A stretch of 64,000 bases of DNA from assembly GCF_044324875.1 (NCBI RefSeq), contig NZ_CP172185.1; one strand, 5' to 3'. Position numbers and translations under genes: made by a program. Below the pieces are notes generated by a model. That model saw nothing but the letters and a program-made list of their open reading frames with translations, was not told the DNA's origin and did no database searches. This document shows, piece by piece, positions 11,845 to 11,867 of this stretch. Every line of letters starts with the position of its first letter. Position 1 is the first letter of the stretch. Source of the DNA: Escherichia coli (GTDB taxonomy: Bacteria; Pseudomonadota; Gammaproteobacteria; Enterobacterales; Enterobacteriaceae).

Positions 11845-11867
11845 CCCCTCTGCATGATGCAGAGGGG
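11845..11867 (+). other. Perfect 9-bp stem / 5-nt loop hairpin in the araF-araG intercistronic spacer
   Basis: cccctctgc-atgat-gcagagggg; no downstream U-run. Confidence 0.6.

Follow-up and report, generated by a model that had tools for sequence, protein, structure and literature searches.

The closest described system to the element considered here is the REP sequence between malE and malF, where differential mRNA stability operates within malEFG and the REP stabilises malE (Newbury et al. 1987, summarised in PMC5927463). Dar and Sorek (PLoS Genet 2018) showed, on the scale of the whole genome, that segments which decay differentially are bounded by protective 3' structures, and that wherever an E. 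coli ABC-transporter operon decayed in this way it was always the substrate-binding gene that was stabilised (PMC5927463). Neither araF and araG nor araFGH occurs in the tables of that study (PMC5927463), presumably because the operon is unexpressed without arabinose.

The araF-araG spacer carries an element that resembles the malE-malF REP in being a stable stem-loop placed right after the first gene, which encodes a periplasmic binding protein, and in needing no U-tract. In both operons an excess of the upstream gene product is expected to be required and to accumulate, and the araF-araG spacers of some Citrobacter carry palindromes that are themselves REP-like. The element differs in being single-copy, in lying outside the REP/BIME family and in being much shorter (25 nt). 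As with the structures of Dar and Sorek, a conserved hairpin would separate a stabilised segment from an unstable one, the substrate-binding gene being the stabilised one; however, most of those structures are found within the downstream coding sequence, about 107 nt in (PMC5927463), and the araF-araG hairpin is situated in the spacer.

Full-text literature searching found no open paper discussing the araF-araG hairpin. It was presumably described in this very operon in 1987 already: Horazdovsky and Hogg (J Mol Biol 1987;197:27-35) reportedly observed two transcripts, an abundant one covering araF only and a rarer one of full length, and are said to have placed the 3' end of the short transcript in the araF-araG spacer, beside a region of dyad symmetry that Scripture et al. 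had reportedly noted in the operon sequence. The element belongs to an ordinary, already known class, its antisense 3' end already stands in a public table, and the hairpin matters little beyond annotation. What it would offer is a further clean case of a binding-protein-first ABC operon tuning its subunit ratios by an intercistronic stem-loop.

The hairpin in the araF-araG spacer

The window (the whole stretch of E. coli DNA that was analysed, 64 kb) has as its + strand the minus strand of K-12, such that a window position equals 1996968 minus the K-12 position. The relevant features are as follows.

10840..11829, + strand: araF, periplasmic arabinose-binding protein, first gene of araFGH (ORF list, RefSeq annotation of matching E. 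coli records)
11827-11829, + strand: araF stop codon, TAA
11830..11898, + strand: araF-araG intercistronic spacer of 69 nt, identical to K-12 MG1655 1985070-1985138
11837..11867, - strand: antisense palindrome then AA-UUUUU-C, of intrinsic-terminator shape (terminator scan, Term-seq table of PMC7815308)
11838-11842, + strand: A-tract 5' of the stem, source of the antisense U-tract
11844..11868, + strand: stem-loop, proposed to block 3' exonucleases on the araF mRNA (RNAfold, covariation)
11890..11901, + strand: araG Shine-Dalgarno GGAG (11890-11893) and start codon ATG (11899-11901) (sequence, fold)
11899..13413, + strand: araG, ATP-binding subunit (RefSeq annotation of near-identical E. coli records)
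13428..14414, + strand: araH, permease, last gene of the operon (RefSeq annotation)

The junction between the two genes (11827-11901) read TAA-TTTGCCGGAAAAATT-CCCCTCTGC-ATGAT-GCAGAGGGG-GTGTGAACGACCAGTGATTCACGGAGACGTT-ATG. Within it, positions 11845-11867 (CCCCTCTGC-ATGAT-GCAGAGGGG) formed a perfect 9-bp inverted repeat, 11845-11853 pairing with 11859-11867, at a distance of 15 nt 3' of the araF stop and 31 nt 5' of the araG start. This confirmed the perfect 9-bp hairpin with a 5-nt loop that a preliminary description had placed in the spacer, the letters matching exactly. RNAfold extended the stem by a closing pair (A11854-U11858) and a basal pair (U11844-G11868), giving an 11-bp stem with a 3-nt loop and an energy of -19.8 kcal/mol; the mean for shuffled sequences was -7.4 (z = -5.2), 0 of 200 shuffles folded as well, and the fold of the whole spacer was dominated by the hairpin. 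Across the 64-kb window, a search for perfect stems of 9 bp or more and loops of 3-8 nt produced 15 hits at about 9 loci where first-order Markov simulations expected 1.95, an approximately eight-fold enrichment; for the subset with at least 7 G/C stem positions there were 2 observed and 0.3 expected. One such hairpin arising by chance is uncommon, not impossible, and the window statistics alone are not compelling; it is the comparative data, presented below, that rule chance out.

The spacer showed 0 mismatches to K-12 in 69 nt, while the flanking coding sequences differed by about 2%, and on this sequence comparison it looks more constrained than the surrounding, mostly synonymous sites. The element was single-copy, and of 5426 complete E. 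coli genomes 5416 contained it. In its araFGH coding regions the window was between about 1.4 and 2.3% divergent from K-12; the best match to positions 10500-14600 among the 5426 complete genomes was only 99.2%, and the 86-nt stretch at 11820-11905 was present at 99% identity or more in 4756 genomes.

Several other identities were considered. Rfam covariance models produced no match at E <= 1 across 10400-14700. Membership of REP/BIME or another repeat family was rejected, there being one copy per genome; no further copies were present within the window at up to 3 mismatches, and the hairpin shows no resemblance to the REP/BIME consensus of the GCCGGATG type. Translational occlusion of araG was also rejected: the stem ends 21 nt 5' of the Shine-Dalgarno GGAG, and in the centroid fold the hairpin pairs with neither the araG Shine-Dalgarno nor its start codon. 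The segment containing these two signals (11890-11901) was invariant across 43 aligned spacers. An ATG in the loop (11854-11856) is in frame with araG and opens a 519-aa ORF (11854-13413), the annotated araG being of 504 aa from 11899; as a start codon for araG it was rejected, being without a Shine-Dalgarno and in a loop that is not conserved, and the annotation uses 11899. A second, weak stem was observed on the + strand at 11869-11889 (GUGAA...UUCAC, 5 bp with a 10-nt loop), on the 3' side of the main hairpin and before the araG Shine-Dalgarno; this folds better on the minus strand (GUGAAU...GUUCAC) and is not obviously conserved outside Escherichia.

Conservation and covariation across enteric bacteria

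A search with AraF, taking one genome per species, recovered 80 loci from Enterobacteriaceae plus Pantoea, from which the spacers between araF stop and araG start were extracted. The genera sampled were Escherichia, Enterobacter, Citrobacter, Klebsiella, Raoultella, Leclercia, Lelliottia, Phytobacter, Buttiauxella, Cedecea, Mangrovibacter, Atlantibacter, Franconibacter, Siccibacter, Pantoea and others. Spacer length varied from 53 to 152 nt (median 70.5). Comparative support was unusually clear, in that all 80 orthologous spacers, and thereby every species sampled, contained a strong local hairpin, in 58 variants of the stem as counted by distinct 5' arms, with some REP-like replacements. A perfect stem of at least 7 bp in Watson-Crick or G-U pairs was present in 70 of the 80, with a median energy of -16.6 kcal/mol, and in the other 10 the stems were long and imperfect, at -13.6 to -32.8 kcal/mol; 66 of the 80 spacers folded better than at least 95% of their own dinucleotide shuffles. 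Loops ranged over 3-10 nt and stems over 7-13 bp. The arms themselves were dissimilar between genera: CCCCTCTGC/GCAGAGGGG in Escherichia, GCCCCTCAC/GTGAGGGGC in Enterobacter, GCCCCCCG/CGGGGGGC in Leclercia, GCCCTCCCG/CGGGAGGGC in Phytobacter and GCCTCCCGC/GCGGGAGGC in Raoultella.

A plain MAFFT alignment analysed with RNAalifold returned only 4 pairs, the 3' arm being one column out of register between Escherichia and Enterobacter. Instead, a covariance model with the majority register was built and 52 spacers were realigned to it. In this alignment 94.3% of cells were in standard pairs, and compensatory, two-sided changes were seen in 8 of 9 pairs. The covariation score was 0.451, compared with 0.195 for shuffles, and was reached by 0 of 500 shuffles; when the 3' partner was slid by 1-3 columns, pairing dropped to 44-60%. 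These covariation counts lean towards structure, since the alignment was fitted to the model; the hairpin search on each individual sequence is independent of any alignment, and agrees. Together the comparisons show a hairpin kept by compensatory mutations across the enteric bacteria, and under selection. Chance, neutral DNA and a site for a sequence-specific protein are poor explanations, because the conservation of pairing emerged from both alignment-based and alignment-free analyses.

In some Citrobacter the CCCCTC-type hairpin was replaced by one or two REP-like palindromes. These were observed in C. koseri, C. freundii, C. gillenii and relatives (loci L008, L046, L048 and L053, with the spacer at approximately 3491-3605) and in C. 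amalonaticus (L013, L014, L016 and L018). The palindromes took the form GCCGGATAAG...CTTATCCGGC, or GCCGGATGGC...GCCATCCGGC. It appears that a mobile palindrome took the place of the local hairpin at the same position.

A palindrome folds on both strands, while G-U pairs form on one only. The aligned stems contained 32 G-U or U-G cells, which pair only in the sense RNA, as against 12 A-C or C-A cells, which pair only in the antisense RNA. In 65 of 80 species the sense spacer folded more stably than the reverse complement, the mean difference being -2.1 kcal/mol. After correcting for composition with shuffles, the sense advantage was -1.4 kcal/mol and was found in 52 of 80 species (Wilcoxon p = 5e-4, ignoring phylogeny). 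This lends support to the structure in the sense mRNA as the selected one, which can only be modest because the statistics ignore phylogeny.

Expression across araFGH and the sense strand

Induction by arabinose was taken from the RNA-seq supplement of PMC12299780, as log2 fold change with arabinose relative to no arabinose.

Biofilm, 28 C: araF 9.71, araG 6.72, araH 5.07 (PMC12299780)
Planktonic, 28 C: araF 4.55, araG 4.02, araH 3.19 (PMC12299780)
Biofilm, 37 C: araF 2.55, araG 0.95, araH 0.18 (PMC12299780)
Planktonic, 37 C: araF 0.94, araG 0.25, araH 0.48 (PMC12299780)

The order araF > araG > araH held in three of the four conditions and araF was the most strongly induced in all four, these being fold changes, for which baselines may differ. 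Over the araBAD genes induction was flat (araB, araA and araD at 9.65, 10.24 and 11.33 respectively, in biofilm at 28 C; PMC12299780). The step down in induction across the hairpin fits a model in which the stem is protective, as a statement about fold changes and not about abundance or half-life.

On balance, the araFGH stem-loop is probably a 3' decay barrier of the malE-malF type that favours araF, and in Escherichia the palindrome also coincides with an antisense 3' end. Under such a mechanism, the distal araG-araH part of the araFGH mRNA would be cleaved or would decay; PNPase and RNase II would then run in the 3'-to-5' direction as far as the stem-loop, and stall. The araF-only mRNA would persist and be translated, leaving the binding protein in excess over the ATPase and permease. 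The preliminary description had suggested just such a 3' stabiliser of the araF message, by which the binding protein and the membrane components would be made in different amounts. This is now the best-supported explanation, because of the compensatory changes across genera, the lean towards the sense strand, the REP-like palindromes of some Citrobacter, and the step-down from araF through araG to araH beside a flat araBAD, although its key step (sense 3' ends at the hairpin under induction), the exonuclease block and the consequence for stoichiometry are what we infer from these patterns.

The same step-down from araF to araG is predicted if the hairpin were instead a partial terminator or attenuator on the sense strand, at which some RNA polymerases stop, leaving fewer transcripts that extend into araG and araH; a stalled exonuclease and a weak terminator would be expected to produce similar 3' ends. 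E. coli RNA polymerase requires a U-tract for efficient intrinsic termination. The sense tail of the hairpin in the window was GUGUGAAC, and because this has only 2 T in 8 nt the + strand hairpin would not ordinarily be classed as an intrinsic terminator; nor was the + strand flagged by the terminator scan. Most genera were alike in this respect, their sense tails having 1-2 T in 8 nt. T-rich sense tails were confined to a few spacers, such as L037 and those of Atlantibacter L032 and L039 (GCCTTTTTGG). Real termination may therefore contribute in some species, but as an account of the element it is unlikely. A partial attenuator, which the preliminary description had offered as its other option, is without sequence support on the + strand, where the U-tract is absent.

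In the two Atlantibacter loci the hairpin (at approximately 3497-3525) was followed by a sense tail of TTTTTGG or TGTTTGG, which has the shape of a sense intrinsic terminator. Genera may therefore differ in whether the barrier terminates transcription or blocks decay.

The antisense strand and a mapped 3' end

On the minus strand the hairpin is followed by AAUUUUUC / AATTTTTCC, which has the shape of an intrinsic terminator, and the terminator scan of this strand returned CCCCTCTGCATCATGCAGAGGGG then AATTTTTCCG, with 10 pairs, 7 of them G-C, and 5 U within 8 nt. The preliminary description had stated that the hairpin lacks a U-tract and is not a simple terminator. Both statements hold in the sense direction (tail GUGUGAAC) and fail in the antisense direction, where there is a U-tract (tail AAUUUUUCC) and a published Term-seq 3' end; the latter is a reminder to check both strands before classifying a hairpin as lacking a U-tract.

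This 3' end was reported by Adams et al. (eLife 2021; PMC7815308, supplementary file 1) at MG1655 1985131(+), antisense to araF, with a 3'-end sequence of ...CCCCTCTGCATCATGCAGAGGGGAATTTTT-C and with 1565 reads in LB at OD 0.4, 1137 in LB at OD 2.0 and 1414 in M63 glucose, counts that are near the lowest + strand values in the table. Counts on the - strand exceed those on the + strand more than ten-fold throughout that table, such that the two strands are not comparable, and the table lists no sense-strand end at the hairpin, which is uninformative because the cultures were uninduced (PMC7815308). By coordinate mapping, 1985131(+) corresponds to position 11837(-) of the window, that is, the C after the five U residues, 8 nt past the stem; this is textbook intrinsic-terminator geometry. 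The caption of the supplementary file gives 40 nt upstream and 10 nt downstream of each end; the strings are 61 nt long, and those for sgrS and other known terminators place the 3' end at position 51, equivalent to 50 nt upstream (PMC7815308).

On the minus strand, therefore, the palindrome shares with a Rho-independent terminator its G+C-rich 10-bp stem, the 5 U within 8 nt and a mapped 3' end 8 nt on; it differs in being placed inside an operon, against antisense transcripts, and not at a gene end. Unlike the bidirectional terminators found between convergent genes, it is one-directional, the sense U-tract being missing. The simplest reading of the 3' end of this weak antisense transcript is that transcription leaving araG terminates intrinsically there, but exonuclease trimming back to the stem could also leave an end at this distance. 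Some antisense transcription passes the hairpin, since a Rho-dependent region was reported within araF on the antisense side, at K-12 1985454(+) or 11514(-) of the window (PMC7815308, supplementary file 2). Among further features of this strand, another antisense 3' end lies inside araG (K-12 1984165(+), window 12803(-)) and was recorded in M63 medium only (PMC7815308); within araG, the - strand contains a single sigma-70-like match, at 12959-12931 (TTGTCG-17-AATAAT).

The A-tract 5' of the stem, which supplies the antisense U-tract, was present in only 9 of the 80 spacers, namely the Escherichia loci, three from Citrobacter sp. and one Pantoea locus; the three Citrobacter sp. loci carry a homologous CTCTG...CAGAG stem. 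Therefore, the antisense-terminator property is lineage-specific, while the hairpin is universal. A reading that combines both strands was entertained, according to which one palindrome would serve as a sense decay barrier governing the AraF:AraGH ratio and as an antisense terminator insulating araF and its promoter, the latter by way of an A-tract gained only in certain lineages (Escherichia and a few Citrobacter) and directed at antisense RNA from within araG. This may be correct, and is put forward tentatively.

A stronger version would make the element mainly an antisense intrinsic terminator that shields araF and its promoter, with the sense hairpin as a by-product. The canonical shape on the - strand (a 10-bp stem with 7 G-C pairs, then AATTTTTCC) and a 3' end reproduced in three conditions are what such a terminator would produce. 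Against this, a hairpin in every spacer is set beside an A-tract in so few, both the G-U pairs and the folding energies favour the sense strand, the Term-seq signal is close to the lowest + strand counts, antisense transcription runs on to the Rho-dependent region in araF, and trimming offers another origin for the 3' end. It was judged to be quite improbable that antisense termination is the main role.

The probability was put lower still for a site acting at the level of DNA, such as the operator of a dimeric protein, or for an inert leftover. A perfect 9-bp palindrome with a 5-bp spacer is similar in geometry to an operator, but what has been conserved is complementarity and not sequence, as seen in the 58 different arms and the variable lengths of loop and stem; the stems tolerate G-U wobble and can be replaced by unrelated REP-like palindromes. 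For these reasons an RNA structure is expected, in preference to a protein site or neutral DNA. Finally, the hairpin could be imagined as a 5' protective structure for an araGH mRNA after an RNase E cut in the A/U-rich single-stranded segment directly 5' of the stem (11838-11844), protection of a kind documented in other operons (PMC5927463), but this is very unlikely when araF, and not araG or araH, accumulates more strongly by RNA-seq, ABC operons stabilise the binding-protein gene (PMC5927463) and the A/U-rich stretch is not conserved outside Escherichia.

Downstream of the operon, a terminator-like hairpin was observed on the + strand at 14452-14479 (11 pairs, tail TCTTCGTTAC), located 38 nt past the araH stop and before otsB. 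Its T-tract is weak, and the araFGH operon probably ends here.
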